Positions 1 to 18,440 of a DNA stretch of 20,000 nucleotides are shown piece by piece. The translations under genes were made by a program, and so were the position numbers. Below the pieces are notes generated by a model that saw nothing but the letters and a program-made list of their open reading frames with translations, was not told the DNA's origin and ran no database searches. The stretch comes from an uncultured virus (IMG/VR IMGVR_UViG_3300043543_000740) (lineage: Duplodnaviria > Heunggongvirae > Uroviricota > Caudoviricetes), in IMG/VR virus record IMGVR_UViG_3300043543_000740. One strand, given 5' to 3'. The stretch's first letter is position 1, and the number at the start of each line of letters is the position of its first letter.

Positions 1-19
1 GGCACAAACGGAGCGCAAG

Positions 20-247
20 GTGACGGACGCGGCCGCGGCGATGCTGGTCGGCCGGCGGGTGGTGCGGGTCGGGTACATGCCGGCCGCGGAGGCGGCGGAC
101 CTGGGGTGGTCGCACCGGCCGGCCGTGCTGGAGTTCGACGACGGGACCGTCGCCTACGCCGCCTGCGACGAGGAGGGGAACGACGCGGGCGTGCTGTTCG
201 TGGAGGCGGGGCGAGGCGACCTCTGCCTCGGGCGGTTCCCGACCTGA
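20..247 (+). CDS. Small hypothetical phage/ICE protein (75 aa; true start may differ)
   Basis: ORF with GC-rich third codon positions, GGAG upstream, and a stop immediately followed by a hammerhead ribozyme, as for the next gene. Confidence 0.65.
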   Translation: MTDAAAAMLVGRRVVRVGYMPAAEAADLGWSHRPAVLEFDDGTVAYAACDEEGNDAGVLFVEAGRGDLCLGRFPT

Positions 248-311
248 GCCGAAACGCGGGACGTCCCGCGTCGCCCGGCCGTGGCGGGCCGGGCCTGATG
301 ACGGCAGCCAC
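248..311 (+). ncRNA. Type II hammerhead ribozyme with pseudoknot (copy 1), predicted cleavage after C272
   Basis: GCC-GAAA-C[GCGGG acgt CCCGC]G-UC-[GCCCGGCC gtggcg GGCCGGGC]-CUGAUGA-c-GGC-a-GCCAC. All core nucleotides are present, and loop I GTGGC pairs with 3' GCCAC. Confidence 0.9.
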
Positions 312-332
312 CGAACCCCGAGGAGCGGAACG

Positions 333-560
333 ATGAACCCGCCGAAGCCGGTGACGATCGAGTTGGAGGTGACCGAGTTCCCCACCGCCCGCGAGGCGAT
401 CGAGCACGCCCGCGCGCACGGCGGCCGGGCGATCCGGCTGGGCGGCCGGAGCCTGGTGGTCCGCGACCAGGACGCGGAGTGGTTGGCGACCGCCCGGGTG
501 GAGTTCGCGTACCTGTGCGACCACCACGGGCAGATCGTGACGGTCCCGGTCAACGATTGA
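333..560 (+). CDS. Small hypothetical protein (75 aa)
   Basis: ORF with AGGAG RBS upstream and coding-like codon usage, flanked by two hammerheads. Confidence 0.8.
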
Positions 561-561
561 A

Positions 562-621
562 GCCGAAACGCCCCCGCGGGCGTCGCGGCGGGTGGCTCCC
601 GCCGCCTGATGATGGCAGCCA
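562..621 (+). ncRNA. Type II hammerhead ribozyme with pseudoknot (copy 2), predicted cleavage after C584
   Basis: GCC-GAAA-C[GCCC ccgc GGGC]G-UC-[GCGGCGGG tggct CCCGCCGC]-CUGAUGA-t-GGC-AGCCA. Stems covary with copy 1, and loop TGGCT pairs with AGCCA. Confidence 0.9.
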
Positions 622-646
622 ACCCCATCGACCCGGAGCGACGACC

Positions 647-1075
647 ATGACCGCGAAGAAGACCACGAAGAGTTCCCCCGCCCCGAAGAAGGCCACCGGG
701 GGCAAGAAGCCGAAGGCCGCCAAGAACGCGACGCCCGCCGTCGAGGAGCCCGCGAAGACCCCGGAGGCGACCACCCCGCCGGCCGAGGCCGCGGATGCCA
801 AGCCCGCCAAGACCAGGAAGGCCCGCGCCGAGAAGCCGAAGAAGATGAGCGCCCTCGACGCCGCCGCCAAGGTCCTCGGCGAGGCGGGCAGCGCGATGAA
901 CGCCAAGGAGATGATCGAGGCGATGGCGAGCAAGGGGTACTGGACGACCCCCGGCGGGAAGACCCCGCACGCGACCCTCTACGCCGCCATCCTGCGCGAG
1001 ATCACCGCCAAGGGGAAGGAGGCCCGGTTCGCCAAGACGGAGCGTGGCAAGTTCGCCCTCAACGGGGAGGCCTGA
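647..1075 (+). CDS. HARE-HTH (HB1/ASXL/restriction endonuclease) winged-helix protein with Lys/Ala/Pro-rich N-terminal tail (142 aa), outer element
   Basis: Start MTAKKTTK after GGAG; C-terminal [10 protein letters not shown]...[33 protein letters not shown]...RF.K..RGKF pattern. Confidence 0.85.
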
Positions 1076-1083
1076 CCCCGGAC

Positions 1084-1194
1084 GCCGCCCGTTCGCCCAC
1101 GAGGCCCCCACGCGGGGCCTCTTCCCGCTTGCCGTCGTTCCGTTCAACGTGCGCCCTCCGACGCGACGTGGGCCGACGTGGGCGAACGGGCGGC
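1084..1194. repeat. Perfect 18-bp inverted repeat enclosing a hairpin, between convergent genes
   Basis: GCCGCCCGTTCGCCCACG (1084-1101) / CGTGGGCGAACGGGCGGC (1177-1194). Confidence 0.8.
1101..1121. terminator. GC-rich hairpin, possible (bidirectional) terminator
   Basis: GAGGCCCC-cacgc-GGGGCCTC between convergent stops at 1075 and 1144; only a weak U-tract. Confidence 0.45.
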
Positions 1195-1515
1195 CTCCGG
1201 GGCGAGGAACCGGACCGGCTTGCCCAGCGCGCGGGCCATCGCGATCTCCTCCCGCACCCCGATGCTCTCCCGCCACCCGTCGAGCATCAGCACCGCGACC
1301 TCGTCGCACCGCTCCAGGTGGACCCGGTCGATGCGTTCCCAATACGACCATGCGGTCGGCAACTCGAACTCGATGAGCGAGTGGCTGTGGACGATCGGCG
1401 AGAACACGACCTCGCCGGCGCGGAGCAGCGCGGCGGTCGCCCGGCAGGCGGCGCGGAACCGCTCTTCGCGGACCGCGGGGTCGGGATGCGAGTATGGACT
1501 GGCGAGGTAGATCAC
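1144..1515 (-). CDS. DUF1937 family protein (nucleoside 2-deoxyribosyltransferase-like fold), 123 aa
   Basis: IYLASPYSH...VFSPIVHSH...W.RID...L.RCD...L.LDGW.ES.GV.EEI motif; GTG start overlaps the methyltransferase stop (GTGA). Confidence 0.85.
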   Translation of the reverse strand: MIYLASPYSHPDPAVREERFRAACRATAALLRAGEVVFSPIVHSHSLIEFELPTAWSYWERIDRVHLERCDEVAVLMLDGWRESIGVREEIAMARALGKPVRFLAPEAARSPTSAHVASEGAR

Positions 1516-1875
1516 GCGGACACCTCCGCGCCGGTCCGCTCGGCCTTGCGGCCGGTGAACTTCTCCCACCGCTGGACGATGACGTCGCAGTACAGCGGGT
1601 CCAACTCCATCAGGTACGCCTTCCGTCCGGTCTGCTCGGCGGCGATGAGCGTGCTGCCGGAGCCGCCGAACAAGTCGAGAACATGCTCACCCTCGCGGGA
1701 CGAGTACTGCATCGCCCGCACGGCCAACTCGACCGGCTTCTCGGTGAGATGCACCATCGACTGCGGGTTGACCTTCTTCACGCTCCACACGTCCGTGGCG
1801 TTGTTCGGCCCGAGGTAGACGTGCGCCGCGCCCTCGCGCCAGCCGTAGAAGCACCACTCGTGGTTGCCCATGAAG
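1512..1875 (-). CDS. C-terminal half of the interrupted ParB-DNA methyltransferase. It is in frame with the serine recombinase ORF and has a possible independent start ATG at 1871
   Basis: FMGNHEWCFYGW...HLTEKPVEL...VLDLFGGSGSTLIAAE.TGR..YLMELDP.YCDVI (motif I SAM-binding and downstream motifs of beta-class N4/N6 MTases). Confidence 0.92.
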
Positions 1876-3623
1876 TCCCCTCCGGGTAGCCGTGTGGAGC
1901 CATCGGCGAACGCACGCTCCAGGCCCGCGTGTAGGTAGACTGTGCCCGTCTTGTCGTCGGGGTTGACCTCGATCTTCTCGACGAACGCGGCGAGCATCTG
2001 CCGGTCCGCGAGGTCGATGTCCGTCCGCGTCGCCAGGGCGTCGAGTTTGGCGAACTGCTCCATCGCCCAGGCCCGCAGATCGGCCTCGGTGATGATCGGT
2101 GTGGCAGGTTCATCGGTGGGCTTCAAGCGGGCCTCCAGCACGTCGCGCTTGGCCTTCAGGTCGGCCAGGGTGGTCCGCAGTTCGTCCAGACCGTCGAACG
2201 TCGGGTCGGCCAGCATCGACACGGTCGCCTTGATCTTGCGGTTCAGCAGGTCGAGCTCGCGCTCGTCGCCCCGCGTCGGCTTGGCCTTCGCTCGCGGGGC
2301 CAGCACCGCTTTGACGAACGCATCGACCGCCTTCTCGACCGTGGCGTGGTCGCCCAGCAGCACCTTCCGCACAGCATCCAGCACGAACCGGTCGAGGGCC
2401 GGGCCGGGGACGTTCACCACCCGGCAGACCGTCTTGCCGTAGCGGTGGTAGCCCGAGCAGGCGTAGACGCGATAGCCCTCGCCGGTCGGGCCGGGCCAGC
2501 GGCGGTCGCGGATCGTGGTGAACGGGTTGCCACACCGCTTGCACACCAGCAGGCCAGCCAGCAGGGTGCGTTTGGTCGGCCGGGCGTTGCCGTGCTCGGC
2601 CCGCCGCTTGGCCACGGCCCGCTGGGCGGCCGCCCAGGTATCCTTGCTGACCAACGCCTCGTGAACGTCCTCGCTGATGATCCAGTCGGCCTCGGTGTTG
2701 CGCTGCCACATCTTCTTCCGCTTCGGCTTCAGCACGCCCTGGCCGTCGAGGCCGAACAGGCTGCCCATCGTGTGGCGGTTCCAGACGACCGCCCCGCGAT
2801 AGACCGGGTTGCGGATCAGCTTGGCGATGCGGGCCGTGTTCCACTTCTGCCCGCCGGGCGACGGGATGCCCTCGGCGTTGAACGTCTGCGCGATGTGGTG
2901 GAAGCCGTAGCCCTGCACGCACAGGTCGAACATCCGCTTCACCACCGCTACCCGCTCGGGCAGGCTCGGGACGTAGCGGATGATGTCGCTCTTGGCCTTC
3001 TTCAGGTTGACGCCCACCGGGACCACTCGCAGCAGTCGGCCATCCGGCCCGAACTCCTGCTTACTACCGTCGGGCATCCACCGCAGCGTGCGGAGCAGTT
3101 GCCCGTCGCCGGTCAAGTGCTGCTTGTCGTAGCCGTACGGGGCCATGCCGCCGGGCGCGGACTTGCGTTCGCGGATGTTCGAGATCTGGCCCCGGATGCT
3201 GTCGCGGGCGAGCTTGACCGAGTACTGGCGGGCCTGCCAGGATTTGACGCCCTGGATCAGTTCGCCCTCGTCGCCCTCGGGGATGCCGTCGGCAGTGAAG
3301 ACCACGCCGACGCCGGCCAGGTGCAGGCGGTGCAGGTAGAAGCCGGTCTCGTTGGTGCCGCCCCGCGAGAAGCGGGAGATGTCGTAGCACAGCACCGCCT
3401 CGAAGTCGCGGCCGTTCTCGGCGGCCTTCATCATCTGCTCGAAGGCGTCGCGGCCGCGGGCACTGGTGCCGGACACCGCGTCGTCGATGTACCAGCGCAG
3501 CACGCGGTAGCCGTGCTCGGCCGCCCAGCGTTCGACGGCGGCCTGCTGGTCGGGGATCGAGCGTTCCTGCATGTCGGTGCTGCGGCGCGCGTAGCCGACG
3601 GCCGGGATCAAGGTCTTGGTCAT
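1512..3623 (-). CDS. Large serine recombinase (integrase). In the integrated state it reads through the att site into the 120-aa MTase C-terminus (703 aa total)
   Basis: AVGYARRST catalytic motif, YDISRFSR, APYGY, IRNPVYRG, HEALVS, zinc ribbon LLAGLLVCKRCG...YAC...C and coiled coil; GGAG RBS before ATG 3623. Confidence 0.95.
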   Translation of the reverse strand: MTKTLIPAVGYARRSTDMQERSIPDQQAAVERWAAEHGYRVLRWYIDDAVSGTSARGRDAFEQMMKAAENGRDFEAVLCYDISRFSRGGTNETGFYLHRLHLAGVGVVFTADGIPEGDEGELIQGVKSWQARQYSVKLARDSIRGQISNIRERKSAPGGMAPYGYDKQHLTGDGQLLRTLRWMPDGSKQEFGPDGRLLRVVPVGVNLKKAKSDIIRYVPSLPERVAVVKRMFDLCVQGYGFHHIAQTFNAEGIPSPGGQKWNTARIAKLIRNPVYRGAVVWNRHTMGSLFGLDGQGVLKPKRKKMWQRNTEADWIISEDVHEALVSKDTWAAAQRAVAKRRAEHGNARPTKRTLLAGLLVCKRCGNPFTTIRDRRWPGPTGEGYRVYACSGYHRYGKTVCRVVNVPGPALDRFVLDAVRKVLLGDHATVEKAVDAFVKAVLAPRAKAKPTRGDERELDLLNRKIKATVSMLADPTFDGLDELRTTLADLKAKRDVLEARLKPTDEPATPIITEADLRAWAMEQFAKLDALATRTDIDLADRQMLAAFVEKIEVNPDDKTGTVYLHAGLERAFADGSTRLPGGDFMGNHEWCFYGWREGAAHVYLGPNNATDVWSVKKVNPQSMVHLTEKPVELAVRAMQYSSREGEHVLDLFGGSGSTLIAAEQTGRKAYLMELDPLYCDVIVQRWEKFTGRKAERTGAEVSA
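1876..1898. other. att junction at the integrase end (crossover TC/GA 1876-1877; attP arm 1884-1898)
   Basis: GGGTAGCCGTGTGGA (1884-1898) is the exact reverse complement of TCCACACGGCTACCC (12471-12485); each arm is 6 nt from the shared dinucleotide. Confidence 0.92.
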
Positions 3624-3648
3624 GGGTTCGTCTCCGGGTTGCGCACCG

Positions 3649-3670
3649 ACGCCCCGCATGGGCGGGGCGT
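3649..3670. promoter_or_regulatory. Hairpin between the HARE-HTH and integrase genes (possible attenuator/terminator)
   Basis: ACGCCCCGC-atgg-GCGGGGCGT, perfect 9-bp stem, no U-tract. Confidence 0.45.
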
Positions 3671-3689
3671 GGCGGCGGGTTGTTTGGAA

Positions 3690-3989
3690 TCAGGCCAGCG
3701 TGAACCGGCCGCGGGCGACCTTGTGGAACTTGGCATCCTTGCCCTTGGCCCGGATCTGTCGCAGTAGGGAGGCGTACAGGGTCGCGGCCGGGGTCTTGCC
3801 CGCCGGGCTGCTCCAGAGCCCCTTGGCCATCATCGCCTCGACCATCTCACCGCAGGTCATCGGCTCGCCGGCGTCGGCCAGGACGCGCTCGGCGGCGGCG
3901 ATCTGGCTCAGCTTCTCGGCCGGGGCCGGTTGCGGTTCAGGCTTCTTCTTCGGGGCTGCCTTCTTCTTCGTGGTCGTCTTCGTCGCCAT
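3690..3989 (-). CDS. HARE-HTH winged-helix protein of the inner element (99 aa), homologous to 647..1075
   Basis: LSQIAAAERVLADAGEPMTCGEMVEAMMAKGLWSSPAGKTPAATLYASLLRQI...KF.K..RGRF; GGAG RBS. Confidence 0.88.
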   Translation of the reverse strand: MATKTTTKKKAAPKKKPEPQPAPAEKLSQIAAAERVLADAGEPMTCGEMVEAMMAKGLWSSPAGKTPAATLYASLLRQIRAKGKDAKFHKVARGRFTLA

Positions 3990-4320
3990 CGTGGTTCTCC
4001 CGCATCGGGTCGTCGTGGTCGCGGGGCGACGATCCCTCCGCGTCAGGACAGTCAGTTACAAGCCGGTTCGCCCCGGTTCCAGCGACTTCCGGCCCGATTC
4101 CGGGAGATTCTTCCGGGGCCAGCAGGTGCTTCCGACCCGCCCGGATGTCGGCCTCGAGTTGTTTGAAGAACCGCCACTCCCACAACGGCACCAGCACCAC
4201 GTCCGCCTTGCCGTAGCGGGTGATGACGACCGGCTCGTCGGTGCGGGCGACGTGCAGGCAGACCATGCCCAGCCCGTCGCGCAGCAGCGACACCGCCATC
4301 TTGTGCTCGGTCGGCTTCAT
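3937..4320 (-). CDS. Phd/YefM antitoxin-like DNA-binding protein (no adjacent toxin seen)
   Basis: ...SLLRDGL...VARTDEPVVITRYGKADVVLVP.WEW matches the Phd/YefM pattern; AAGGA RBS; the C-terminal tail is poorly supported and overlaps the next gene. Confidence 0.7.
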   Translation of the reverse strand: MKPTEHKMAVSLLRDGLGMVCLHVARTDEPVVITRYGKADVVLVPLWEWRFFKQLEADIRAGRKHLLAPEESPGIGPEVAGTGANRLVTDCPDAEGSSPRDHDDPMRENHDGDEDDHEEEGSPEEEA

Positions 4321-4405
4321 GGTTCCTTTCCGGGTTTGGCTCCCCGCGATGAGGTCGGGCGGAACAGGCACGGGGAACAAGACACACATCTTGTGACCAA
4401 CAAAA

Positions 4406-4498
4406 TCCGGACCTGTACAAGAAGGAAACTGTGCTTACCCCGGTCGGTGTTCCGCGTGCCAATTTTTCTTTTCGATCCGGCCGGGAAGGAACCATTGG
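4406..4498 (-). promoter_or_regulatory. Putative packaging (cos/pac-like) signal of the inner element
   Basis: Minus strand CCAAT-GGTTCCT-T-CCCGGCCG-N24-GGAACA-N14-CACAGTTT...GTCCGGA; same blocks and N24/N14 spacing as 13659-13746. Confidence 0.6.
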
Positions 4499-4556
4499 CC
4501 AGTTGTTGCGTGTGCAACACCTGATCCATTTGAATCACCCGGTCCGGCGGGTTGTC

Positions 4557-4746
4557 TTCCACACGGCTACCCCGCGACCTCTCATCGTGCCGCGCGTGCT
4601 TGTGCGCGCTTCCTATACCCGCCCCCCGGGGTGCGTTCACGCACCCACGGGGGGTATAAGGGGGGTGCGCGCACACACACACAGACACCCGAGGCGGGTC
4701 AGCAAGACGCCGGGAGGAAGTTTCCACACGGCTACCCCGCGACCTC
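4557..4746. repeat. Two 25-bp direct repeats containing the attP arm, flanking a nested palindrome (putative origin of replication)
   Basis: TTCCACACGGCTACCCCGCGACCTC at 4557-4581 and 4722-4746. Nested inverted repeats: TGTGCGCGC/GCGCGCACA (4601-4609/4667-4675), TATACCC/GGGTATA (4614-4620/4652-4658), GGGTGCG-ttca-CGCACCC (4629-4646). Confidence 0.85.
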
Positions 4747-4759
4747 ATGAACGCGGTCA

Positions 4760-6349
4760 TCACTCATCCTCCGGCTGGGGTCGCGTGGCGAACTGGACCG
4801 GCTGGTTGGCTCCGAACTTCCAGCGGTGGACGAGCCCGGCGGCCTCGGCCTGCTTGAGCAGCTTCTTGGCCAGCGGTTCGGGCACATCCGCCTCCGTGGC
4901 CCGGTGGACGATGCGCGCCGTCATGGCGGGCGTCTTGGTCACGAACGCCGCCACGAACGAAGGGACGGTCCACTCCGGCTTCGACGGCTTGGCCGGCTCG
5001 GGCTGCGGGGTCGGCTTCGGCTTGCGGCGGAGCTTCTCGGACTTGAGGTCGGACGGGTCGAGCGCGTCCTCGACGGTCCAGACCGGGAACGACCAGCGCA
5101 GACACCTGGGTTCGATCGGCGGCCACGAGCGGACGGCGGCGTCGAGGACGGCCACTCCGGGCTCCTCGTGCGGACGCAGGACGAGGTGCGTGTCCGCCGC
5201 ACGCGACTGCGCCCCGGCCCCCGCGCCGACATCCGTGACCGCCTTGCCCGACTGGTTCCCCTTGGTGCTGTGGTGGATCAGCACGAACGCGCACTGCAAC
5301 TTCGCGGCATAGGCGTCCAGCACGTTGTACACCTGGGCCATCGTGCCGTTGTCGTTCTCGTCCGTGTCCCTCGGCATCGCCCGGTAGAAGGCGTCGATCA
5401 CGACTAGCTTGTACCTGCCCGGCTCGATCCGGCTGAAGCACGGCCCCAGGCCGAAGATGTCTTTCAGCTTGCCACGCAGGTTCACGATGTCGATGCGGTC
5501 GCCGCACTCGGCGAGCGTGATGCCGCGGGCCTCCATGACCTTCGGGATGCGGCCGGCCGACGTTTCCTTGTGCAACTCGTTGTCGATGAGCAGCACCCGG
5601 CCCTGTTCGCACGGGAACAGATCGAGCCACGGGCGGCCGGTCGCCACGGCCAGGGCGAGGTCGCTCACCAGCCAGGACTTGCCGACCTTGGGCGAAGCGA
5701 TGACGTTCAGCGTCTCGCCTTCGCGGAGCAGCCCATGCACGACCGGCGGTCGCAGGTGCGGATACCGCATGACGAGTTCGCGGAGCGACTGGATGGGAAA
5801 CTCGTCCGGCTCCGACTTGGCGGGTGTCGGCACCGGCTTGGTCCCGGTGCGAAGCCACTCCAAGTTGCCGGGCTTCTTGGTGAGCGGTGCCGGCTCGGGT
5901 TCCGGCGGTTCGTCCCAATCGTCGTCGGGACGGGGTGGTTCGGTGGGTTGGTCGAAGTCGATCGGCTCGGCCGCCCAGCGTTCGACTCGAGTGAGCCAGC
6001 GTTCCAGTTCCACGCCGAAGTCGCGCTCCTCGGCATCGGGGTTGAACCACGCCTGCTCGACGAACGCCAGCGCGTGATGCCGACCGCGCAGTTGAGCCGC
6101 CAGAACCTCGTGGCCCGGCGTGTACCACTCCGCGCCGTCACGCTCGACCCGCGCGTTCTCCCGGGCGATCTGCCGCTGCTCCTCGACGAACTGGATCACC
6201 TCGATGTCCGGCCGGAGCCACTGCGACGCCTCGCGGGCACCGAGGAGAAATCCCTCCCGATAGGCATGCTCGGCCTGCTCCCGATGCGGATGGCCCTCGG
6301 GCAGCACGGAATCGCCGTAGTAGGGCACCATTTCAGTTGCGTTCGACAC
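4760..6349 (-). CDS. AAA_25/RepA-like (SF4-type) replicative helicase with unknown N-terminal region and probable C-terminal winged helix (529 aa)
   Basis: Walker A ASPKVGKS, VLLIDNE, Walker B LVVIDA, LIHHSTK, GAGAQSRAAD; GTG start at 6349 with GGAGGT RBS. Confidence 0.88.
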   Translation of the reverse strand: MSNATEMVPYYGDSVLPEGHPHREQAEHAYREGFLLGAREASQWLRPDIEVIQFVEEQRQIARENARVERDGAEWYTPGHEVLAAQLRGRHHALAFVEQAWFNPDAEERDFGVELERWLTRVERWAAEPIDFDQPTEPPRPDDDWDEPPEPEPAPLTKKPGNLEWLRTGTKPVPTPAKSEPDEFPIQSLRELVMRYPHLRPPVVHGLLREGETLNVIASPKVGKSWLVSDLALAVATGRPWLDLFPCEQGRVLLIDNELHKETSAGRIPKVMEARGITLAECGDRIDIVNLRGKLKDIFGLGPCFSRIEPGRYKLVVIDAFYRAMPRDTDENDNGTMAQVYNVLDAYAAKLQCAFVLIHHSTKGNQSGKAVTDVGAGAGAQSRAADTHLVLRPHEEPGVAVLDAAVRSWPPIEPRCLRWSFPVWTVEDALDPSDLKSEKLRRKPKPTPQPEPAKPSKPEWTVPSFVAAFVTKTPAMTARIVHRATEADVPEPLAKKLLKQAEAAGLVHRWKFGANQPVQFATRPQPEDE

Positions 6350-6503
6350 GTTGCACCTCCTCCCGGCCGCGGAGCCACTGGGCCAGGAGCCATGCCGCCA
6401 ACGCCTCGGCGCGCCGCTCGACGCGGGCCTGGGCCTCGGGCGCGGGGTCGCTGAACGCCACGGTGAACGTGAACGAGCCGATCTGCGGGTTGGTGTCGGA
6501 CAT
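6333..6503 (-). CDS. Small hypothetical protein, 56 aa (MSDTNPQIGSFTFTVAFSDPAPEAQARVERRAEALAAWLLAQWLRGREEVQRVERN); absent from the ORF track
   Basis: AGGAG RBS, coding-like codon usage, stop overlaps the helicase start region. Confidence 0.65.
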   Translation of the reverse strand: MSDTNPQIGSFTFTVAFSDPAPEAQARVERRAEALAAWLLAQWLRGREEVQRVERN

Positions 6504-6637
6504 GGCCCCTCTCCTGTGCCGGTCCTGCCGAGGCAGGGATGAACCCCACGGCGGGGTTCGGCGACGGCTTGCCGGGTCGGCAAGTCGCGTTCGCCAGAGG
6601 CGAAGAGGGTCGGTCGATAGGTTGTGTCAGTGGGCTG

Positions 6638-8479
6638 TCAGTTCTCCCCTTTGGCCTTGTACGCGGCCCGGTGGTCGGCCAGCGCGGCCCCGTAGTCGAA
6701 GTAGACCCGCCAGGACACGGCCAGCTTATTCGGCTCCGCATCCATGCCGAAGAACTCGACGTTCGGCGACTGAACACCTTGCAGGAAGGCGACGATCAGC
6801 GGGGTGTCGGCCGGCCCGGCGAACAGGTACCACGCCTTCGCCGAGGTGCCGCTGAACCGCCCCGCGTTCGACAGTCGCGGCTCCACTTCCAGCGTCACGG
6901 CGTTCTTGAGGGCGTTGCCGGTGGGCACGTCGTTGTTGGCCCGCTGCAGAAAGTCGCTCATGAGCAACTCCTTGGCGGTCTGCTGCAACTCCGGCGGCAC
7001 CAGCAGCACGCGCGGCCGGATGTCCAGATCGCGGCCCTCGCCGTCGCGCTGGCTCATCATCTTGGCGATGCCCGCCCCCAGCGACGCGCTGGACAACGCC
7101 GTGGCCGTCCCGGTGTCGTAGTTGGCGTGGCCGCCGCTGAAGAAGTTCCCGGCGTTGGCCAGCAGCACCTGGTACACGAGGTCGCTCAAGGACCGCATCG
7201 CCGCCCGGCCGAGGTTCCGGGCCGTCTCGTCGAACAACGATAAATCGTCGTTCACAACATCCCTGCGGTCGATGCTGAGCATCTTGGCGAAGGTGTCGAT
7301 GCGGAACGGGTAGGTCATCTCCTTGATGGAGCCGTGCTTGATCTCGCCGCCGGGGGCCAGCTGGGTGAGGTCCCCCACGTCACTACCCCGCACCCCGGTG
7401 TGCGGCTTGAAGTCCGTCGCCGACTTGATGCCCGCGAACGACCGCCACGTCGCCGGCGTCTCGGTGTAGGCGTCCATCAGCAGCTTGTTGGCCGCGTCAC
7501 CCAACGCCACCGGCAGTGAGTAGGTGGACAGCGCGGCGCGGATCAGGGCGTCCCGGCTGCTGGGAATGTCCCGGCCGTCGAGTTGCAACGCCGCCCGGCA
7601 CAGGTCGATCAGGTTCGTGGCCCGGAGGTCGCGGGCCTGCTGGGCTGCCGTGGCCCCGAGGTGCCGTTCGGCGAGGTGTTCGTAGCCCATGTGGCTCAGC
7701 ACCGCCGCCTCCAGCGTCTGTCGGGTCGTGGTGAACGTCCGGCTGTGGATCGTCGTCACCTGCGGCCGGCTGGCACGCAGGACTTCGAGCCGCGTGCGGC
7801 GGACATCCCAGCCTTCCACGATGGCGCGGGCCTCGATGTCGCCGAACTGCCCGCCGCACGCGGTGCGGATGGCGTGGACCCGCTCCGTCTCGGCCAGGGC
7901 CGCCGCTCGGATGTCATCGGCCGTCTGCGTCTCGTTCATGGTGCTCTCCTTCCCTTGGGCCGCGATGGCGACCGACGTGTTCGCATCGGCCCCGATGGCG
8001 ACGATGCTCACCTCCCGCAGCACGCCGGCCTTGACCAGCGTGAACCCACTCCGTCCGGCGGTGATCGCCCGGCCGTTCACCTGCACGGATTCGCCGCCAC
8101 GAACCCGCTCGTAATCGGTAGGCATCACGCCGACCGATGCTTGGAACTTGAACCCGCCCCGAGCGAGTTCAACCACCTGCCGGGCCGCCTCGGTCACGCC
8201 GGTAAGCGTGCCGTGGACGAGCAGCTTGCCGTCGATCACCTGCGCGCGGCCGTGCCCGACGATGCCGTCGAGTGTGGCGTCGTGGTCCGCCAAGAGGCTG
8301 ATCTGCTCGGCTCCGGCATCAAGCCCCGCGAGGTCGATGGCAACCGGCCCCCAGCCCGGCACCGTCATCAGCCCGCCCGTGTACGCCACGATGGAAACGC
8401 TCGGCGGTTTGCCGGACGCGGCTTGAATCTCGACCTCGGCGGATGACAGCAGGATTTCTTGAGACGCAGTGGAACGCAT
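6638..8479 (-). CDS. Prohead protease-major capsid protein fusion (HK97 fold, Mu gpT-like), 613 aa
   Basis: N-terminal protease motifs LLADHD..IVG, FQASVG, LREVSIVAIGAD; capsid motifs ANKLLMDAY....TW, DFK, GGEIKHG, TFAKMLSIDRRDVVNDDL, PRVLLVPPEL, AWYL, V.FDYGA..DHR. Confidence 0.88.
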   Translation of the reverse strand: MRSTASQEILLSSAEVEIQAASGKPPSVSIVAYTGGLMTVPGWGPVAIDLAGLDAGAEQISLLADHDATLDGIVGHGRAQVIDGKLLVHGTLTGVTEAARQVVELARGGFKFQASVGVMPTDYERVRGGESVQVNGRAITAGRSGFTLVKAGVLREVSIVAIGADANTSVAIAAQGKESTMNETQTADDIRAAALAETERVHAIRTACGGQFGDIEARAIVEGWDVRRTRLEVLRASRPQVTTIHSRTFTTTRQTLEAAVLSHMGYEHLAERHLGATAAQQARDLRATNLIDLCRAALQLDGRDIPSSRDALIRAALSTYSLPVALGDAANKLLMDAYTETPATWRSFAGIKSATDFKPHTGVRGSDVGDLTQLAPGGEIKHGSIKEMTYPFRIDTFAKMLSIDRRDVVNDDLSLFDETARNLGRAAMRSLSDLVYQVLLANAGNFFSGGHANYDTGTATALSSASLGAGIAKMMSQRDGEGRDLDIRPRVLLVPPELQQTAKELLMSDFLQRANNDVPTGNALKNAVTLEVEPRLSNAGRFSGTSAKAWYLFAGPADTPLIVAFLQGVQSPNVEFFGMDAEPNKLAVSWRVYFDYGAALADHRAAYKAKGEN

Positions 8480-8673
8480 GAGGTGACCGACCTCCCCGGA
8501 ACGACGGAACGGAAGCAACCGGTCGGGCACGGTGCCCGCCGGTCGAGGGGTGGTTGGATGGGTGGGTCGTTGGGTTGGGTCGGTCGGTCGATGGGTTCGT
8601 TCGGGTCGTCAGGGTGGGAAGGTTTGCTCCCGGTCCTTGGCCGTCATGGCGCGACCGTTCCCCGACTGGAAGA

Positions 8674-8702
8674 ATTGTAGCGGATGTACACCTTGACGAC
8701 AA
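8674..8702 (-). promoter_or_regulatory. Sigma70-like promoter for the capsid-helicase operon
   Basis: Minus strand TTGTCG-N17-TACAAT in the AT-richer divergent intergenic region. Confidence 0.6.
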
Positions 8703-8770
8703 GCCCGGGAGATGATTTTCTTTCGTATAACAATGTTCTCATCGAGAAAGGCATCCCGAGAGTACTTGCC

Positions 8771-11700
8771 ATGCGTCGTTCCCTATCGTCCTGGGCCAAG
8801 AGCATCTTCCCGACCGCCCCGACTCGGCCGATCCGTAAGCCTCGTTCCTTGACCCTGGAACAGTTGGAAACGCGCGACTGCCCGACCGTCCTGCCGCCGG
8901 GCGGCCCCGAACCGCAGCCGCCCGGCCCCGGCTTCCCGCCGGTAGCCAACCCGGACCACTTCGCCTTCGCTCCCGACGCGCCGATCCGCATCAGCGTCGC
9001 CGACCTGCTGGCCAACGACACGGCCGCGCCCGGCGTGCCGCTGACGGTCGAACTGCTCGATAGCCCCGCCGGCGGGCAACTCGACCTGATCGACGTGGGC
9101 CTGTGGGAGTACACGCCCGGCACCGGTTTCAGCGGCAGCGACGCTTTCAGCTACCGCCTCTTCGACGGCACCGATTACAGCCTGCCCGCCCTCGTGACCT
9201 TCGAGCAGCAGCCCACCCCGCCAAGCACACCAGCCACACCCACCGTCACCGACGTGACCGAGGCGTGGCTGACCGGCTTCGAGGATGAGGCCCTCGGCAG
9301 TGTCACCGTCGCGGTGTTCGAGACGGCCGAGGCGGACGTGCTCGACTGGACCGCCAGCATCGACTGGGGCGACGGCACCACAACCACCGGGCAGATCGTG
9401 GCCGACGGCGACGGCCGGTTTCGCGTCGTGGGCGAACACACCTACGACGCGTGGGGCCTGTACCTCGTGCAGGTCACGCTGACCGACACGGTCGAGGAGA
9501 CGCACGACCTCTACAACCTGGCGAGCATCCAGTTCCGCAACTACACTTACACGTTTACCGACCCGATCGGCAACAGCACGCAGTTCGTCTTCGCCGAGGG
9601 CTGGCAACTCACGCAGGAGATCGACCCGCTCGGGAATTCGACCTTCTACAGCTACACCACCGACGGCCTGCTCGCCAGCCGCACCGACCGGCTGGGCCGG
9701 GCCATCACCTTCGACTACGGCACCGACGGCGTGCTCCTGAGCCAGACGTGGCTGGCCGCCGACCTGACCACCGTGGTGGACACGCTGTCGTTCAGCTACA
9801 CCAGCGACGGCCTTTTGCTCAGTGCGAGCAACGGCGTCGGGGCGTACACATTCAGTTGGGCCGACGGGGTGCTGACCGGCGTGACCAACCCGTTCGGGGT
9901 GACGCTGACGTTCGGCTACGACACCGACGGCCGACGGACCTCGGTGGCCGACTCGTTCGGCGGGCTGATCACCTCGACCTACACCGACGGCCTGCTCAGC
10001 AGCCGGACGCTCGTGGCCGGGGCGTTGAACCTGCGGGTCGATCTGGGCTACGACGCCGACGGGGTGCCGACCCAGATCAGCCGGTTCGCCGGGCCGCTGC
10101 AGGAGTTGGTGTCGCAGACGGAGTACGCCTTCGCGCAGGGCTTGCTCGCCTCGATCACGCATCGCGGCGCGGGCGGGGTGATCCTCGACCAGTTCCTCTA
10201 CCAGTTCGACGAGGACGGCTTCCTCTCGCAGATCACCTCCGACTTCGTGGGCGAGACCGACTACGCCTACGACGCCGACGGGCAGTTGACCGGCGAATCG
10301 TCAATCTTGGTGTCCAGCACGTTCAGCTACGACGCCAACGGGAACCGGGTGGGCGGCGGGTACGTCGTCGGGCCGGGCAACCGCCTGCTGGCCGACGGCA
10401 CGTGGAGCTACAGCTACGACGCCGAGGGGAACCTCGTCGGCAAGACGCACCTCGTGACCGGCGATAGTTGGACCTACAGCTACGACCACCGCAACCAGAT
10501 GACCCTGGCCGAGAAGCGTGACGCGAGCGGGTCGGTGGTGCTCTACGCAGTCTACAAGTACGACGTGTTCGGCAACCGCATCGAGAAGGCGGTGGACTGG
10601 GACGGTGATGGACCAAACACGCCAGTCATGACGCGGTACGTGCTTGACGGCTGGAACAACATGAAGCCGACGCCGGTCGGCAACGAGCACTTCGACGTGT
10701 ACGCCGAGTTGGACGGCACGAATCAGTTGATCGCCCGGTATCTGCACGGCGACGAGTTCGACCAGACGTTCGCGCGGGTGTTGGTGGACGGCAGCACGCC
10801 CGAGGTCCACTGGCTGTTGGCCGACCACCTGAACTCGGTGCGTTTGGTGCTGGACGAGAGCGGCGCGGTACTCGACCAGATCGCCTATGATGCCTTCGGC
10901 AATATCGTGGCGCAGCTGAACCCGCTGCTCGTTAACCCGATCCTGTTCGCCTCGCGCGAGTTCGACGCCGAGACGGGCCTCTACTACAACCGCGCCCGCT
11001 ACCTCGACCCCACCACCGGCTGCTGGACCACGCAAGACCCGCTCGGCTTCGCCGCCGGCGACGCCAACCTCTATCGCTACCTGAACAACAGCCCGACCCT
11101 TGCCACCGACCCGAGTGGCTTGATCTGGTATCCGGGGAAGTATCTGTACCAGATGTACAGCGAATACCGACGGGGTCAGGAACTGGATCGCCAGATTAAC
11201 CAGCATCGTGCCACGCAAAACTTACCGCCACTCCCGCCGCCGCCTCACTGGGCACGAGTGGCTGTCACGGAGTTTGGTGATGGTCTGCGGATCGGGTTTC
11301 AAGCCAACGTGAATGCGGTAGCGACGGCCGGACGTTCGTTGGTCACCTTGGGTATCTGGGCCGAGCCGTGGGAAGTGTGGGCAGTGGATGACGTCGATCG
11401 GCCGTTCTACGAGGATGGGTTTTTGGCTGCACGCTTCGGCTGGGAGTTGCTGCCGACGGCGGGGATTGGCAAGCTGACGCAAGTGCCGGGTCAGATGGGT
11501 CGCTGGGGCCGGTACGCTCTGTACTGGGACGCTGGCCAGAATGTTGTCCAGGTCGGTCGGGGTGGTTATGATATCTACGAAAACGGCCTGACCTGGACGA
11601 ATGGCCTGCAAGTCGGCGGCCTGCTCGGACTGGGCGGCAACTACACCACTTGGCGGAGGCTGCCGAGTGTAGCTCCAGCAGGTAAGGGGGGAAGAGGGGA

Positions 11701-11980
11701 CATCATGCGGATGGCCCCGTCTGATGCCCCTCGGTCTGCCGCCGAGGCCGCCTTGCGACGGGAAGCAGAATTGCGACAGCGAATCCTGGCAGATCGTCTT
11801 GCTGAGTTAGGTCACGGTGAGGGTGGTGCTGTCGGAAAGGGAGCGACCCGCCTTCCTCCTGAAGCAGCGAATGATCCCACGGCCCGAGGTATGTGGGAAG
11901 AGTTGCAAAGGATTCGTCGCCAGATTGCTGACCTTCGCCGTAACCCGCCTTCTGGCCCCCGTGAAATGCTGGAACCTTGA
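8771..11980 (+). CDS. Rhs/YD-repeat polymorphic toxin with planctomycete export motif, Ig/cadherin-like domains, short Rhs cage and an unknown ~285-aa C-terminal domain (1069 aa)
   Basis: LTLEQLETRDCP; PVANPD..LLAND..YTP..F.G.D.F.Y; IDWGDG...HTY; YD repeats; Rhs core GLYYNRARYLDP..G.W...DPLG...NLYRY..NSP....DPSGL. Confidence 0.92.
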   Translation: MRRSLSSWAKSIFPTAPTRPIRKPRSLTLEQLETRDCPTVLPPGGPEPQPPGPGFPPVANPDHFAFAPDAPIRISVADLLANDTAAPGVPLTVELLDSPAGGQLDLIDVGLWEYTPGTGFSGSDAFSYRLFDGTDYSLPALVTFEQQPTPPSTPATPTVTDVTEAWLTGFEDEALGSVTVAVFETAEADVLDWTASIDWGDGTTTTGQIVADGDGRFRVVGEHTYDAWGLYLVQVTLTDTVEETHDLYNLASIQFRNYTYTFTDPIGNSTQFVFAEGWQLTQEIDPLGNSTFYSYTTDGLLASRTDRLGRAITFDYGTDGVLLSQTWLAADLTTVVDTLSFSYTSDGLLLSASNGVGAYTFSWADGVLTGVTNPFGVTLTFGYDTDGRRTSVADSFGGLITSTYTDGLLSSRTLVAGALNLRVDLGYDADGVPTQISRFAGPLQELVSQTEYAFAQGLLASITHRGAGGVILDQFLYQFDEDGFLSQITSDFVGETDYAYDADGQLTGESSILVSSTFSYDANGNRVGGGYVVGPGNRLLADGTWSYSYDAEGNLVGKTHLVTGDSWTYSYDHRNQMTLAEKRDASGSVVLYAVYKYDVFGNRIEKAVDWDGDGPNTPVMTRYVLDGWNNMKPTPVGNEHFDVYAELDGTNQLIARYLHGDEFDQTFARVLVDGSTPEVHWLLADHLNSVRLVLDESGAVLDQIAYDAFGNIVAQLNPLLVNPILFASREFDAETGLYYNRARYLDPTTGCWTTQDPLGFAAGDANLYRYLNNSPTLATDPSGLIWYPGKYLYQMYSEYRRGQELDRQINQHRATQNLPPLPPPPHWARVAVTEFGDGLRIGFQANVNAVATAGRSLVTLGIWAEPWEVWAVDDVDRPFYEDGFLAARFGWELLPTAGIGKLTQVPGQMGRWGRYALYWDAGQNVVQVGRGGYDIYENGLTWTNGLQVGGLLGLGGNYTTWRRLPSVAPAGKGGRGDIMRMAPSDAPRSAAEAALRREAELRQRILADRLAELGHGEGGAVGKGATRLPPEAANDPTARGMWEELQRIRRQIADLRRNPPSGPREMLEP

Positions 11981-11988
11981 GGAAGATC

Positions 11989-12321
11989 ATGATGGAAAGA
12001 AAGAACGGTCGAATCGTCGGCGGCTCTTTCGATGAGCTTGTGGCGATGCTATCTTCGTCCAATCACTTCGACCGGGCTGAGGCGGCCAGGCTGCTCGTCA
12101 ACATGCGGAAGGAGGCCATCAAGGCATTACCCGCACTTCTGGCTCTGCACAATGACCCCTGTGATCTGGTTCGCATTCAAGTACCCCGTGCGATTATTCA
12201 CATGGAAGCTCGCCCTGATGAGGCTGCTGAGGTTCTACGCTGCCTTTTGAATGACAAGAACAAGATCGTCAGGCTGTATGCTGAAGAAGCGCAGCAGTTT
12301 CTCACCCAGCGAACGTCATAG
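11989..12321 (+). CDS. HEAT-repeat protein, probable Rhs immunity protein (110 aa)
   Basis: Directly follows the toxin; RAEAARLL / ALPALLALHNDP.DLVR / LLND.NKIVR..A HEAT-like repeats; lower GC. Confidence 0.75.
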   Translation: MMERKNGRIVGGSFDELVAMLSSSNHFDRAEAARLLVNMRKEAIKALPALLALHNDPCDLVRIQVPRAIIHMEARPDEAAEVLRCLLNDKNKIVRLYAEEAQQFLTQRTS

Positions 12322-12427
12322 CTCTTTGTGTGCTGCTCGTCCCGAAGTACGCCGCCGCCTTTTCACCCCCCGGAGTCCCAATCAAGAACACAGGCCGGGG
12401 TAGCTACCAGCCTAGCCTGAAAAATGT

Positions 12428-13438
12428 TCACATCCACACGTTTCCCCGTTCCCACTCGAACCCGACCCGTTCCACACGGCTACCCCGTGAATCCTTGCGG
12501 GTGAGCACCGGGTGCTCCTTCACCCAGATGATCGCCTGCGAAAAGTACAACTCGCAGGCCTTCAGCACCGGCGGGTAGTTGGCGCAGTTGGCGTAGCCGC
12601 CCCAGATGTAGAAGCCGCGGCCGGGCTCCAGCACGCGGGCGAGGTTCCCGAACCACGCGGCCAAGAGCCGGTCGAACTCGGCGTCGGAGACGAAGTCGTT
12701 GGCGAGCGGCCGGTCCTTGGCGCGGAGCTTCTTCCCCGTCGGTTTGGCCTTCTCGGGGTGGCGCTCGACGTCGAGCTTCTGGTGGTGGGTGGTGCCGGCG
12801 AACGAGGAGAGGCCGGCGGCGATGGCGTTGTTGGAACGCGGCTCGACCTTCACGTTGTACGGCGGGTCGGTGTTCACCAGGTGGATGCCCGCGCCGCCGA
12901 GCAACCGGTCCACGTCCGCCGGCTTGCTGCTGTCGCCGCACAGGAGGCGGTGGTCGCCCAGCACCCACAGGTCGCCCGGTTTGGTCGTCGCCTCGTCCGG
13001 CGGTTCGGGCACCTCGTCCGGGTCGGTCAACCCGTCCTTCAGGGTCGGGTCGAGCAGCTTCGCCAGCTCGTCCGCGTCGAAGCCGAGGAGCGCGAGGTCG
13101 TAGTTGGCCTCCTTCAGCCCGGCCAGTTCGATCGGGAGCAGGTCGTAGTCCCACGTCGCCAGCGACGCCGTCTGGTTGTCGGCGATCCGGTAGGCGCGGA
13201 TCTGCTCGGGGGTCAGGTCCGTGGCGACGTGGACCGGCACCTTCTCCAGGCCCAGCTTCAGTGCCGCCTTGTAGCGCGTGTGGCCGACGACGATGACGCC
13301 CTCGGCATCGACGACGATCGGCTGGCGGAACCCGAACTCGCGGAGCGACGCCGCGACCGCATCGACCGCGTCGGCGTTATCCCGCGGGTTGCCGGGGTAC
13401 GGCTTCACGTCGGTGATCTTCCAGAGTTCGATCTTCAC
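12428..13438 (-). CDS. N-terminal part of the ParB-N + DNA (N4-C/N6-A, beta class) methyltransferase, truncated by the element and ending in a 20-aa element-derived tail
   Basis: PYPGNPR..N, FGFRQPIVVD, GHTR..AA, YRIADN (ParB-like); W.LG.HRLLCGDS; TDPPYNV (motif IV); IIWVKE...TRKD; GTG start at 13438 with GGAGG RBS. Confidence 0.93.
   Translation of the reverse strand: MKIELWKITDVKPYPGNPRDNADAVDAVAASLREFGFRQPIVVDAEGVIVVGHTRYKAALKLGLEKVPVHVATDLTPEQIRAYRIADNQTASLATWDYDLLPIELAGLKEANYDLALLGFDADELAKLLDPTLKDGLTDPDEVPEPPDEATTKPGDLWVLGDHRLLCGDSSKPADVDRLLGGAGIHLVNTDPPYNVKVEPRSNNAIAAGLSSFAGTTHHQKLDVERHPEKAKPTGKKLRAKDRPLANDFVSDAEFDRLLAAWFGNLARVLEPGRGFYIWGGYANCANYPPVLKACELYFSQAIIWVKEHPVLTRKDSRGSRVERVGFEWERGNVWM
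12471..12493. other. att junction at the Rhs end (attP arm 12471-12485; crossover TC/GA 12492-12493)
   Basis: TCCACACGGCTACCC-CGTGAA-TC-CTTGCGGGTGAG; methyltransferase homology stops exactly here. Confidence 0.92.
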
Positions 13439-13658
13439 AGGTCGTCCCTCCAGGTTTCGCCGTGGTACAGCTCGATGGCGGTCAGCTCGTGGGCAGGTCG
13501 CCTCTCGACTCCGAACGGCTCGGTCGGCACGGGGCGGGCGCGGCGCGTCCCGGCCTCGCTGAGCTAGGCCGGGCGGCCGACGCATCGAAGGCAATAGGGG
13601 CCGTGCGGCGTGTCCCGACCGCACCCCTCACATCAGCGCATGGAGCACCTCTCCGAAG

Positions 13659-13746
13659 TCCGGACAGCGAAAACAAACTGTGTCCTGTAGCGCGGCTGTT
13701 CCCCCTGGCGTCGCGGGCGAAACATGCGGCCGGGAGTACCTATTGG
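13659..13746 (-). promoter_or_regulatory. Putative cos/pac-like packaging signal of the outer prophage-like element
   Basis: Minus strand CCAAT-AGGTACT-CCCGGCCG-N24-GGAACA-N14-CACAGTTT...GTCCGGA. AGGTACT resembles lambda cosQ (GGGTCCT). It lies between the replication module and the ParB-MTase gene. Confidence 0.55.
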
Positions 13747-13865
13747 ACCGATCGACCTTCGGGGCGTAGCGGCATCGGCCACGCCGATGTTCGGATCTCA
13801 CCACGAACCAGAAACGATGGATCGGCACCTCCAACACGATGAAGAACAAGAAGAGAATCCGAGGG

Positions 13866-14005
13866 GGAGGTAGTTCGTAGTTTTTGGTAGCCACCCTTTC
13901 TCTCCTCCAGCGCCGATCGCGCACACACGAGGTGGGTGCGAAAAACGACGAACTACCTCCTTCACGCGGAGACAAGGCGGGTACGAAAAACTACGAACTA
14001 CCTCC
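13866..14005. repeat. Three 20-bp iteron-like repeats (two direct, one inverted), putative origin of the outer element
   Basis: AAAAAC(T/G)ACGAACTACCTCC at 13941-13960 and 13986-14005; exact reverse complement of the latter at 13866-13885; at the 3' end of the primase gene. Confidence 0.8.
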
Positions 14006-17781: not shown

Positions 17782-17787
17782 GGCTCT

Positions 17788-18363: not shown

Positions 18364-18440
18364 GGGGTGACTCGTGAGGAATGGTGGCGGCCACGGCCCG
18401 GCGCGGGGGCACCGGGTGAACGTGCGTCAGGGGACTGCGA

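Follow-up and report, generated by a model that had tools for sequence, protein, structure and literature searches.

Helper-embedded phage-inducible chromosomal islands (HE-PICIs) of Enterobacterales are elements of about 10–11 kb that are nested in, and co-oriented with, helper prophage genes (Tommasini, Mageeney & Williams 2023, PMC10111431). They are described as occupying several alternative target genes including the large terminase, as having integrase subclades that track the target site, as leaving chromosomal off-target copies, as disrupting the target with no replacement sequence in attP and as often carrying a capsid gene (PMC10111431). We analysed a 20,000-nt stretch of DNA from an uncultured Caudoviricetes virus (IMG/VR IMGVR_UViG_3300043543_000740; the window, meaning this whole stretch), which has about 68% G+C and real genes mostly on the minus strand. 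A 10,616-bp element in it (1878–12493) splits a ParB-methyltransferase gene of a prophage, and the closest precedent we found for it is the HE-PICIs (PMC10111431). It forms a distinct unit that was mobilised by a serine recombinase in the recent past and lies within a prophage gene. The elements of its family are constrained in size, encode the capsid as their only structural component and have two genes of a single phage family as their targets. We consider it probable that the element is a helper-embedded phage satellite.

The boundaries of the element were established from an empty site. Virus record G002 (49.5 kb) corresponds to window positions 1–1878 plus 12484–20000 in one unbroken stretch of 100% identity, and the gene that is split in the window (ParB_N and N6_N4_Mtase domains) is intact there, encoding 498 aa. 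Contigs from two of the four sequencing runs compared, X3 and X4, join position 1875 to 12492, skipping 10,616 bases with three letters that fit either side; X4 contigs also join 1873 to 12490. Both runs also contain parts of the element, and element-bearing and empty forms coexist in them. An empty site with fully identical flanks indicates recent mobility. The crossover dinucleotide TC (GA in gene orientation) lies at 1876–1877 in attL and at 12492–12493 in attR, a spacing of 10,616 bp; the two ends share a TCC core, and the insertion is co-oriented with the methyltransferase gene. An earlier reading of the letters alone (the preliminary description) had proposed exactly these boundaries within a prophage methyltransferase gene, and both points were confirmed.

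On the plus strand, attL reads ...CCCATGAAG-TCC-CCTCCGGGTAGCCGTGTGG and attR reads CCACACGGCTACCCCGTGAA-TCC-TTGCGGGTGAGC. Base-by-base comparison with G002 gave attB as ...CCCATGAAGTCCTTGCGGGTGAGC, against which attL appears as ...GAAG-TCC-CCTCCGGGTAGCCGTGTGG and attR as CCACACGGCTACCCCGTGAA-TCC-TTGCGG. The reconstructed attP, CCACACGGCTACCC-(14 nt)-GGGTAGCCGTGTGG, is a nearly perfect inverted repeat: its 14-nt arms are perfectly inverted, with TC central in the 14-nt spacer. Four copies of the arm motif CCACACGGCTACCC occur in the window, all within the element (one per att site and two direct copies at 4559 and 4724), a number reached in none of 200 shuffles, which substantiates the repeats mentioned in the preliminary description. 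Across 45 uninterrupted helper-family methyltransferase genes, the 40-nt attB was 82% conserved, compared with 75% for the whole gene. The features of the element and of its split target are as follows.

1512–1877, minus strand: helper ParB-methyltransferase, C-terminal part; when integrated, the in-frame tail of the recombinase open reading frame (ORF), with N6_N4_Mtase profile positions 139–220 at residues 620–695 of the 715-aa ORF; joined to the N-terminal part in G002
1856–1900, no strand: attL, made up of the helper half-site, the TCC core (1876–1878) and the element arm GGGTAGCCGTGTGG (1884–1897)
1878–3659, minus strand: large serine recombinase (Resolvase, Recombinase and Zn_ribbon_recom in Pfam), without its own stop inside the element and with the crossover in its 3' end
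3690–3989, minus strand: HARE-HTH protein, paralogue of the helper HARE-HTH protein (Pfam E = 1.3e-14)
3937–4389, minus strand: Phd/YefM-like small protein (Pfam 24.7 bits, cut-off 29.8; 50–86% conserved in relatives)
4390–4759, no strand: intergenic region, a candidate control region or origin; direct att-arm copies (4559–4572 and 4724–4737) flank an imperfect palindrome (~4600–4665)
4760–6334, minus strand: AAA_25 (RepA/DnaB-like) replicative helicase (Pfam AAA_25 E = 1.6e-29; phrog_2597 'DNA primase' E = 4.6e-40)
6333–6503, minus strand: 56-aa ORF upstream of the helicase gene, an open frame only
6638–8530, minus strand: prohead protease/major capsid protein fusion, 630 aa (Phage_capsid_4 E = 2e-41; phrog_4523; 52–84% identity to satellite-type copies)
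8531–8683, no strand: divergent intergenic region with two copies of GGTCGGTCGATRGGTT (8561 and 8582)
8684–11980, plus strand: Rhs/YD-repeat protein, 1098 aa, variable cargo (RHS_repeat, Big_9 and Cadherin domains)
11977–12321, plus strand: HEAT-repeat protein (HEAT_2 E = 2.3e-7)
12428–12494, minus strand: other end of the element, with the attR arm CCACACGGCTACCC (12472–12485), the TCC core (12492–12494) and a 20-aa tail SRGSRVERVGFEWERGNVWM followed by a stop
12495–13624, minus strand: helper ParB-methyltransferase, N-terminal part (ParB_N and N6_N4_Mtase profile positions 1–91), 100% identical to G002

Eight ORFs of the element were scanned against Pfam and PHROGs. The minus-strand order is capsid fusion, 56-aa ORF, AAA_25 helicase, a 370-bp intergenic region, Phd-like gene, HARE-HTH gene and recombinase; the plus strand carries, divergent from the capsid gene, the Rhs gene and then the HEAT-repeat gene. 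The serine integrase, HARE-HTH protein, AAA_25 helicase and protease-capsid fusion named in the preliminary description were each matched by Pfam, and the fusion by PHROGs as well: its residues 62–628 correspond to phrog_4523 'major head and protease protein' (E = 1.6e-78), and its N-terminal part also matches head-maturation-protease families of PHROGs. No terminase, portal, tail or connector family was matched by any of the eight ORFs, in agreement with the earlier statement that terminase, portal and tail genes are missing. The element thus has no full virion and packaging gene set and co-occurs with a phage that has one, as expected of satellites in general. Going by its Resolvase, Recombinase and zinc-ribbon domains, an attP built as an inverted repeat and a 2-bp crossover that attB has too, it also has the sequence characteristics of a large-serine-recombinase integrative element.

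Three further items of the preliminary description held in part. The Phd-like protein was found, but under the Pfam cut-off; it is a probable DNA-binding regulator, and no toxin partner for it is present in the element. The 56-aa ORF exists as an open frame, but had no Pfam or PHROGs match and no tblastn match in relatives, leaving it a candidate gene only. The proposed Rhs toxin and immunity gene correspond to a protein with RHS repeats and a HEAT_2 protein encoded downstream, but the C-terminal ~280 aa of the Rhs protein matched no Pfam family, gave only leads below 0.9 in the protein atlas and had no meaningful PDB match, and the HEAT protein is a putative immunity protein by position alone. 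By eye, we spotted near Rhs residue 818 what we take to be a DPxGL-like boundary. The helicase ORF stays open to 6583; relatives align from residue ~65 onward only, and its start was therefore placed near Met84 (6334), which is probably the true one.

Candidate control sequences were also found. The sequence GGTCGGTCGATRGGTT occurs three times in the window (6608–6623, 8561–8576 and 8582–8597), upstream of the capsid and helicase genes; three matches were reached in none of 200 shuffles, and similar copies stand at corresponding places in L095, L015, L016 and L101, so that it may be an operator or promoter element. The internal att-arm copies are likewise paired in L095, L097 and L101. A candidate promoter-like sequence, TTGTCG-17-TACAAT (minus strand, 8702–8674), crosses the right edge of the divergent intergenic region into the Rhs start. 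A scan of the element for promoters and terminators was not above chance, and the element contained no Rfam matches and no tRNAs (ARAGORN).

The helper is represented by the siphovirus-like prophage of G002, which lies between glycosyltransferase genes at ~10.2 and ~40.5 kb and is ~30 kb in size as estimated from gene content. Its packaging, head and tail genes encode a large terminase (TerL; GpA_nuclease, gpA-type), a lambda-family portal, a 651-aa protease-capsid fusion, cement, head-tail joining and tail tube proteins. It has its own serine recombinase with DUF2924, the ParB-methylase and a divergent HARE-HTH gene; the methylase target lies upstream of the packaging module, and the helper replication module present in the window comprises AAA_24, DUF669, RusA, helicase and Prim-Pol genes. 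The capsid fusion of the element is 35% identical to that of the helper over its whole length, and the HARE-HTH proteins are 55% identical over 74 aa (75% nucleotide identity over 183 nt); at the nucleotide level, element and helper resemble each other in these two coding regions only. The element has ~0.35 of the helper length, and the composite (~41 kb) is ~135% of the helper.

Several observations concern the helper alone. Its HARE-HTH gene (window 479–1075, plus strand) encodes an extra Lys/Ala/Pro-rich N-terminal half and is kept between the methylase and terminase genes throughout the helper family. Just downstream of the methylase, window positions 1144–1569 (minus strand) encode a DUF1937/nucleoside 2-deoxyribosyltransferase-like protein of the helper, which hints at DNA base modification by the helper. 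In some helper-family methylases (L109:16527-17693; also L034 and L042, with the methylase split at residue 386), the EWC motif is followed immediately by an insert of ~0.8 kb, at a point 8 codons downstream from the satellite attB. The L109 insert gave a weak Intein_splicing match (E = 1.5e-5, below the cut-off). Given this position, intein and satellite seem to target the same conserved methylase motif. Larger inserts of ~2.3–2.4 kb in L036 and L086 split the helper-family methylase at a second position, near residue 260.

Relatives of the element were sought by scanning viral contigs with the helicase and by scanning genomes, of which each species contributed one, with six aligned satellite capsids; the genome scan yielded 51 loci. 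The helicase scan detected five full-length relatives (L015–L018 and L078) and ~75 contigs from the helper phage family; in the primase-helicase of these phages only the helicase half is shared (53–63% identity). Satellite-type capsids were present in 43 loci: the window, six virus contigs and 36 genome loci (L095–L130), the last with capsids 49–84% identical to that of the window. Nearly all of these genome loci are in metagenome-assembled genomes (MAGs) labelled Planctomycetota (Gemmataceae, Frigoriglobus, Pirellulales, Thermoguttaceae, Phycisphaera); one, L110, is in the cultured Roseimaritima sediminicola JC651. The host of the window's element is presumed to be a planctomycete solely through these binned relatives, and the family is widespread in planctomycetes and apparently undescribed. 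The satellite-type capsid was found in none of the 61 genomes of the family of genome G001, two of which had helper-type matches only (39% identity), and among GenBank phages only relatives with <31% identity were found. A further 13 capsid homologues (29–41% identity) were mostly from Kiritimatiellae; in 11 of them the capsid gene comes after terminase and portal genes, the order usual in phages, which no satellite-type copy shows.

The insertion sites fell into few classes. The methylase gene is occupied in 12 of the 43 loci (window, L014, L095, L096, L097, L100, L105, L109, L113, L114, L121 and L122), the TerL gene in eight (L015–L018, L101, L102, L107 and L127) and chromosomal genes in five (L098, L099, L104, L110 and L117), while one element (L078) adjoins a tRNA gene; the remaining 17 loci were too short or their site was not determined. 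Besides the window, the methylase loci (ten genome loci and one virus contig) are split at the same TRKD/FMG codon and show the same synteny of capsid, AAA_25 helicase, HARE-HTH and serine recombinase genes. The preliminary description had suggested searching for this arrangement; it was found, and the eight TerL loci came in addition. In L015–L018, the same core is inserted at nucleotide 946–948 (codon ~316) of the helper-family large-terminase gene, with identities of 71–75% for the capsid, 52–56% for the helicase and 62–63% for the recombinase; the Phd-like gene is present, and HARE-HTH is 81% identical in L015 and L016. We considered L078-type elements as helper-embedded too and rejected this: with a capsid of 52% identity, a different recombinase and a position beside a tRNA gene, they form a more distant branch.

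The conserved core (capsid-protease fusion, replicative helicase, HARE-HTH and serine recombinase) lies beside a variable cargo slot. Cargo genes were Rhs/HEAT in the window, an Eco57I-like methylase in L015, a transglutaminase-like gene in L018, Calx-beta in L095 and, in L078, a ResIII/methylase pair with a TnsA-like gene. The ten complete elements measured 10,177, 10,317, 10,407, 10,496, 10,527, 10,616, 10,745, 10,757, 11,167 and ~11,406 bp. In most relatives a 'U' gene (~180–225 aa) precedes the capsid gene; its four forms are homologous (hhalign, 97–99.7% probability), and a subset of relatives has a sigma-70-like gene at this position as well.

Some loci depart from the common pattern. 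Two family members per MAG were seen twice, as L097 and L101 in a Frigoriglobus MAG (one in the methylase, one in TerL) and as L113 and L114 in one Planctomycetaceae MAG (both in methylase genes). In L014 (794–16093), a satellite-type capsid is directly followed by helper-type head-tail joining and tail genes, with no helicase, recombinase, terminase or portal; in L106 (2687–4857), helper-type capsid pieces come after it. Each of the two has the look of a recombination product, or an assembly chimera, of satellite and helper capsid genes. In the genome of L099, a helper-type TerL gene (G440:C369:7707-11174) is split near residue 320–330, at the satellite TerL site, by ~1 kb only, far less than a satellite. 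In the chromosomal copy L110 of the cultured JC651, the recombinase match is spread across two reading frames; the genome contains no helper-type TerL detectable with the TerL query; this copy is probably orphaned and decaying.

Phylogenies were inferred for both the capsid and the recombinase. The capsid tree, a quick maximum-likelihood reconstruction from 43 fusions, placed 28 satellite-type rows on one side of a branch with a Shimodaira–Hasegawa-like approximate likelihood ratio test (SH-aLRT) support of 93, and four full-length helper capsids were separate (SH-aLRT 99). Among the capsid matches long enough to extract, only L108 had an internal stop; it was dropped from the tree. Methylase, TerL and chromosomal elements were intermixed in the capsid tree. 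The recombinases formed a TerL-type subclade (five TerL rows and the chromosomal L099; SH-aLRT 99) and a methylase-type subclade (seven methylase rows, three chromosomal rows and contig L146; SH-aLRT 89). As recombinases split by target while capsids mix, site choice follows the recombinase, and reshuffling of the recombinase and capsid modules has taken place. The attP arms are nearly alike in both subclades, and the attB sequences are unrelated. Chromosomal copies nest in both subclades and therefore look like off-target events.

The recombinase reading frame crosses the element boundary. A 715-aa minus-strand ORF (3659 to 1512) encodes the serine recombinase and then the C-terminal third of the methylase with no stop between them; a second minus-strand ORF (13624 to 12428) encodes ParB_N and the first part of the methylase. 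Besides the window, 11 helper-embedded loci were checked, and in all 11, as in the window, the frame runs on without a stop into the C-terminal part of the target. The extension measures 121–135 aa at methylase loci (389 aa in L109, including the intein-like insert) and at least 431 aa of the terminase nuclease domain at TerL loci (464–465 aa where complete). In L095, the recombinase match falls in two frames near residue 515, owing to a frameshift or to misassembly. A conserved tail (SRGSRVERVgFeWeR...), 20 aa long in the window and ending in a stop, is encoded at the opposite end of the element; it would complete the recombinase in the circular form. Since attP lies inside the 3' end of the recombinase gene, integration would replace the conserved 20-aa tail of the enzyme by the C-terminal part of the target. 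The tail swap may tune the stability or directionality of the recombinase.

Metagenome contig L146 contains an intact attP, and its recombinase, 75% identical to that of the window, ends in the same kind of tail and stop; a free or tandem form of a relative of the window's element therefore exists. On another metagenome contig, L147 (1–2963), likeness to the family is limited to ~120 bp around an intact attP-like site, and a 683-aa Rhs-repeat ORF stands on one side in the place of the recombinase. The contig may represent a non-autonomous miniature form.

A further reading, which we put forward tentatively and regard as unlikely, is that these satellites hold the helper hostage through regulated gene integrity. 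Insertion would be at codons of the most conserved catalytic motifs, TRKD/FMG in the methyltransferase and a Walker-B-like hhhhDD in TerL, as part of the same speculative scheme. Equally conjecturally, the enzyme would exist in two forms, ending in the 20-aa tail in the circle and fused in frame to the helper C-terminal part when integrated, and the choice of integration or excision would be set, with no classical directionality factor, by this exchange of C-termini and by the additional att-arm copies that lie between the helicase and Phd-like genes. If true, this would be a new way of controlling a large serine recombinase.

The reading that we favour, a helper-embedded satellite, implies the following life cycle. 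On induction of the helper, the recombinase would excise the element, restoring the helper gene, and the circle would replicate by means of its own AAA_25 helicase from the repeat-flanked intergenic region. The protease-capsid protein of the element would build small capsids on helper portals, suited to about one-third of the helper genome; the helper would supply the portal, terminase, connectors and tail, and its terminase would package the element DNA. The Rhs/HEAT pair would be cargo benefiting the lysogen.

A number of observations weigh against this reading. We infer encapsidation in helper-derived particles from size and synteny, which is an indirect basis. No cos-like non-coding stretch common to the element and G002 was found (blastn, word size 7), and neither a small terminase nor a recombination directionality factor was identified in the element. 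The gene interrupted in the window is not a late morphogenesis gene. The antisense Rhs/HEAT cargo lies between the helper promoter side and the capsid operon, and a terminator-like hairpin follows the fused recombinase-methylase stop (the scan being not above chance), so that transcriptional read-through from the helper into the window's element is doubtful. The window and its closest relative, L095, lack the 'U' gene. The attP joint of the window's own element was not among the joints listed in the run-contig comparison, and the attP pattern had no matches in the viral contigs or in the 401 genomes of the phylum of the nearest genome. Contig L146 (1–1997) may be a rearrangement or an assembly chimera, because a truncated Rhs gene on it (87% identical to residues 644–813 of that of the window) abuts an uninterrupted TerL fragment (residues 122–602). 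Helper-type terminases were detected with the TerL query in just two of the five genomes with chromosomal copies.

The strongest competing explanation, which we judge improbable, is that the element is an integrative island never packaged alone, its capsid homologue being an interference or defence factor that poisons phage assembly, and that it spreads as a prophage passenger or otherwise. Insertion into TerL, as in eight loci, would disable the prophage; part of the cargo resembles defence or competition genes (Rhs in the window, restriction-modification-like genes in L015 and L078); and the absence of any identified cos site or small terminase, with three of five chromosomal-copy genomes lacking a detectable helper terminase, fit such an island too. 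It accounts less well for the tight size of all ten complete copies (10.2–11.4 kb) in spite of swapped cargo, for the family-wide conservation of a full-length capsid fusion including the protease domain and for the element's own replication module, and an island travelling as a passenger would make a composite ~135% as long as the helper genome.

A decayed remnant of a second prophage inserted in the first, with integrase, replication and capsid genes left, is far less probable still, and we rejected it on the family-wide conservation. The capsid, helicase domain and HARE-HTH do have homologues in helper-family phages, but the same reduced gene set and order, with intact ORFs, recurs in 42 further loci, element size is uniform, satellite capsids group apart from helper capsids, and the exact empty site with 100% flank identity implies recent mobility. 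In the preliminary description, the lack of any circle or empty site, the lack of homologous elements with conserved synteny, or degenerate capsid copies left from a larger prophage, had been named as outcomes speaking against a satellite. None of these was seen: an empty site and the attP junction of a relative (L146) are present, and the capsid copies, which are intact, make up a conserved group of their own. The least credible possibility is a constitutive moron of a larger helper variant, packaged only within it, which would fit the co-orientation with helper genes and the flanks identical to G002, but sits poorly with interrupted methyltransferase or terminase frames, a dedicated recombinase with att sites and the coexistence of empty and occupied forms in X3 and X4.

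If the helper-embedded satellite reading is right, these are the first phage satellites described for Planctomycetota and a second, independent origin of the helper-embedded lifestyle, with a serine in place of a tyrosine recombinase. Such a second origin suggests that satellites resort to nesting in their helper repeatedly, and that this habit is not confined to the PICIs of enterobacteria. A minimal satellite with one structural gene would be a clean system for studying how a capsid protein, acting by itself on a portal that is not its own, redirects the size of the capsid. Two close recombinase subclades with nearly the same attP and unrelated attB provide material for studying, and possibly engineering, the target choice of serine integrases. 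Through the variable slot, satellites would ferry Rhs toxin cassettes and restriction-modification-like genes among planctomycetes.

A full-text literature search returned nothing joining phage satellites with planctomycetes, and the matches listed for phage satellites, serine recombinase and major capsid protein included no such element; judged from its listing, the literature on helper-embedded satellites has none on Planctomycetota. Among other known satellites, capsid-forming PICIs (cf-PICIs) encode their own HK97-type capsid in a full head module with portal, connectors and small terminase, and Ccm of the Staphylococcus aureus pathogenicity island (SaPI) SaPIbov5 is a lone capsid homologue. 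The window's element shares with both a satellite-encoded capsid protein and a genome of about one-third of the helper's. Its eight ORFs contain the capsid fusion only, with no portal, terminase or connector match, in contrast to cf-PICIs, whereas Ccm acts within a tyrosine-integrase SaPI with other remodelling genes. P4-like satellites differ in their Sid/Psu/Delta-type genes, alpha primase and tyrosine integrase, which are absent from the element's Pfam and PHROGs matches; the integrase of the element is a serine recombinase.

The phage-inducible chromosomal island-like elements (PLEs) of Vibrio cholerae integrate and excise by a large serine recombinase, for which the helper supplies the directionality factor; they target chromosomal repeats and have no major capsid protein. 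The large serine recombinase is shared with the window's element, for which a helper-supplied directionality factor is plausible by analogy. Unlike PLEs, it targets a prophage gene, has relatives in Planctomycetota MAGs and encodes a capsid protein; no PLE-type families were matched in the general Pfam scan of the element, in which no PLE-specific profile was used. In Mx8 (intP/intX) and in the integration-dependent immunity of mycobacteriophages, attP lies inside a coding region and integration alters the C-terminus of the protein, as in the element. Those are tyrosine-integrase systems of complete phages, whereas the effect of the tail swap in the element is putative.

The comparison with HE-PICIs (PMC10111431) shows the closest likeness. 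The window's element is nested within a helper gene, the ParB-methyltransferase of the G002 prophage. The minus strand carries this methyltransferase gene and likewise the element's genes for capsid, helicase, HARE-HTH and recombinase; only Rhs/HEAT lies opposite. Its family has the ~10–11 kb size, alternative targets including TerL, recombinase subclades that follow the site and off-target copies; it likewise disrupts the target without a replacement sequence and carries a capsid gene. The satellite of a different design proposed in the preliminary description is borne out for the serine recombinase and the lone capsid fusion, but the helper-embedded design itself has this precedent. The differences from HE-PICIs are several. 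HE-PICIs have tyrosine integrases of the 11capE clade with a neighbouring AlpA, whereas the element uses a large serine recombinase and had no AlpA-like match in Pfam. The hosts are Planctomycetota instead of enterobacteria, and the protease-capsid fusion is the sole structural gene. The window target, the ParB-methyltransferase, is not a late gene, although eight relatives do sit in TerL. Finally, the recombinase ORF of the element runs in frame into the C-terminal part of its target.

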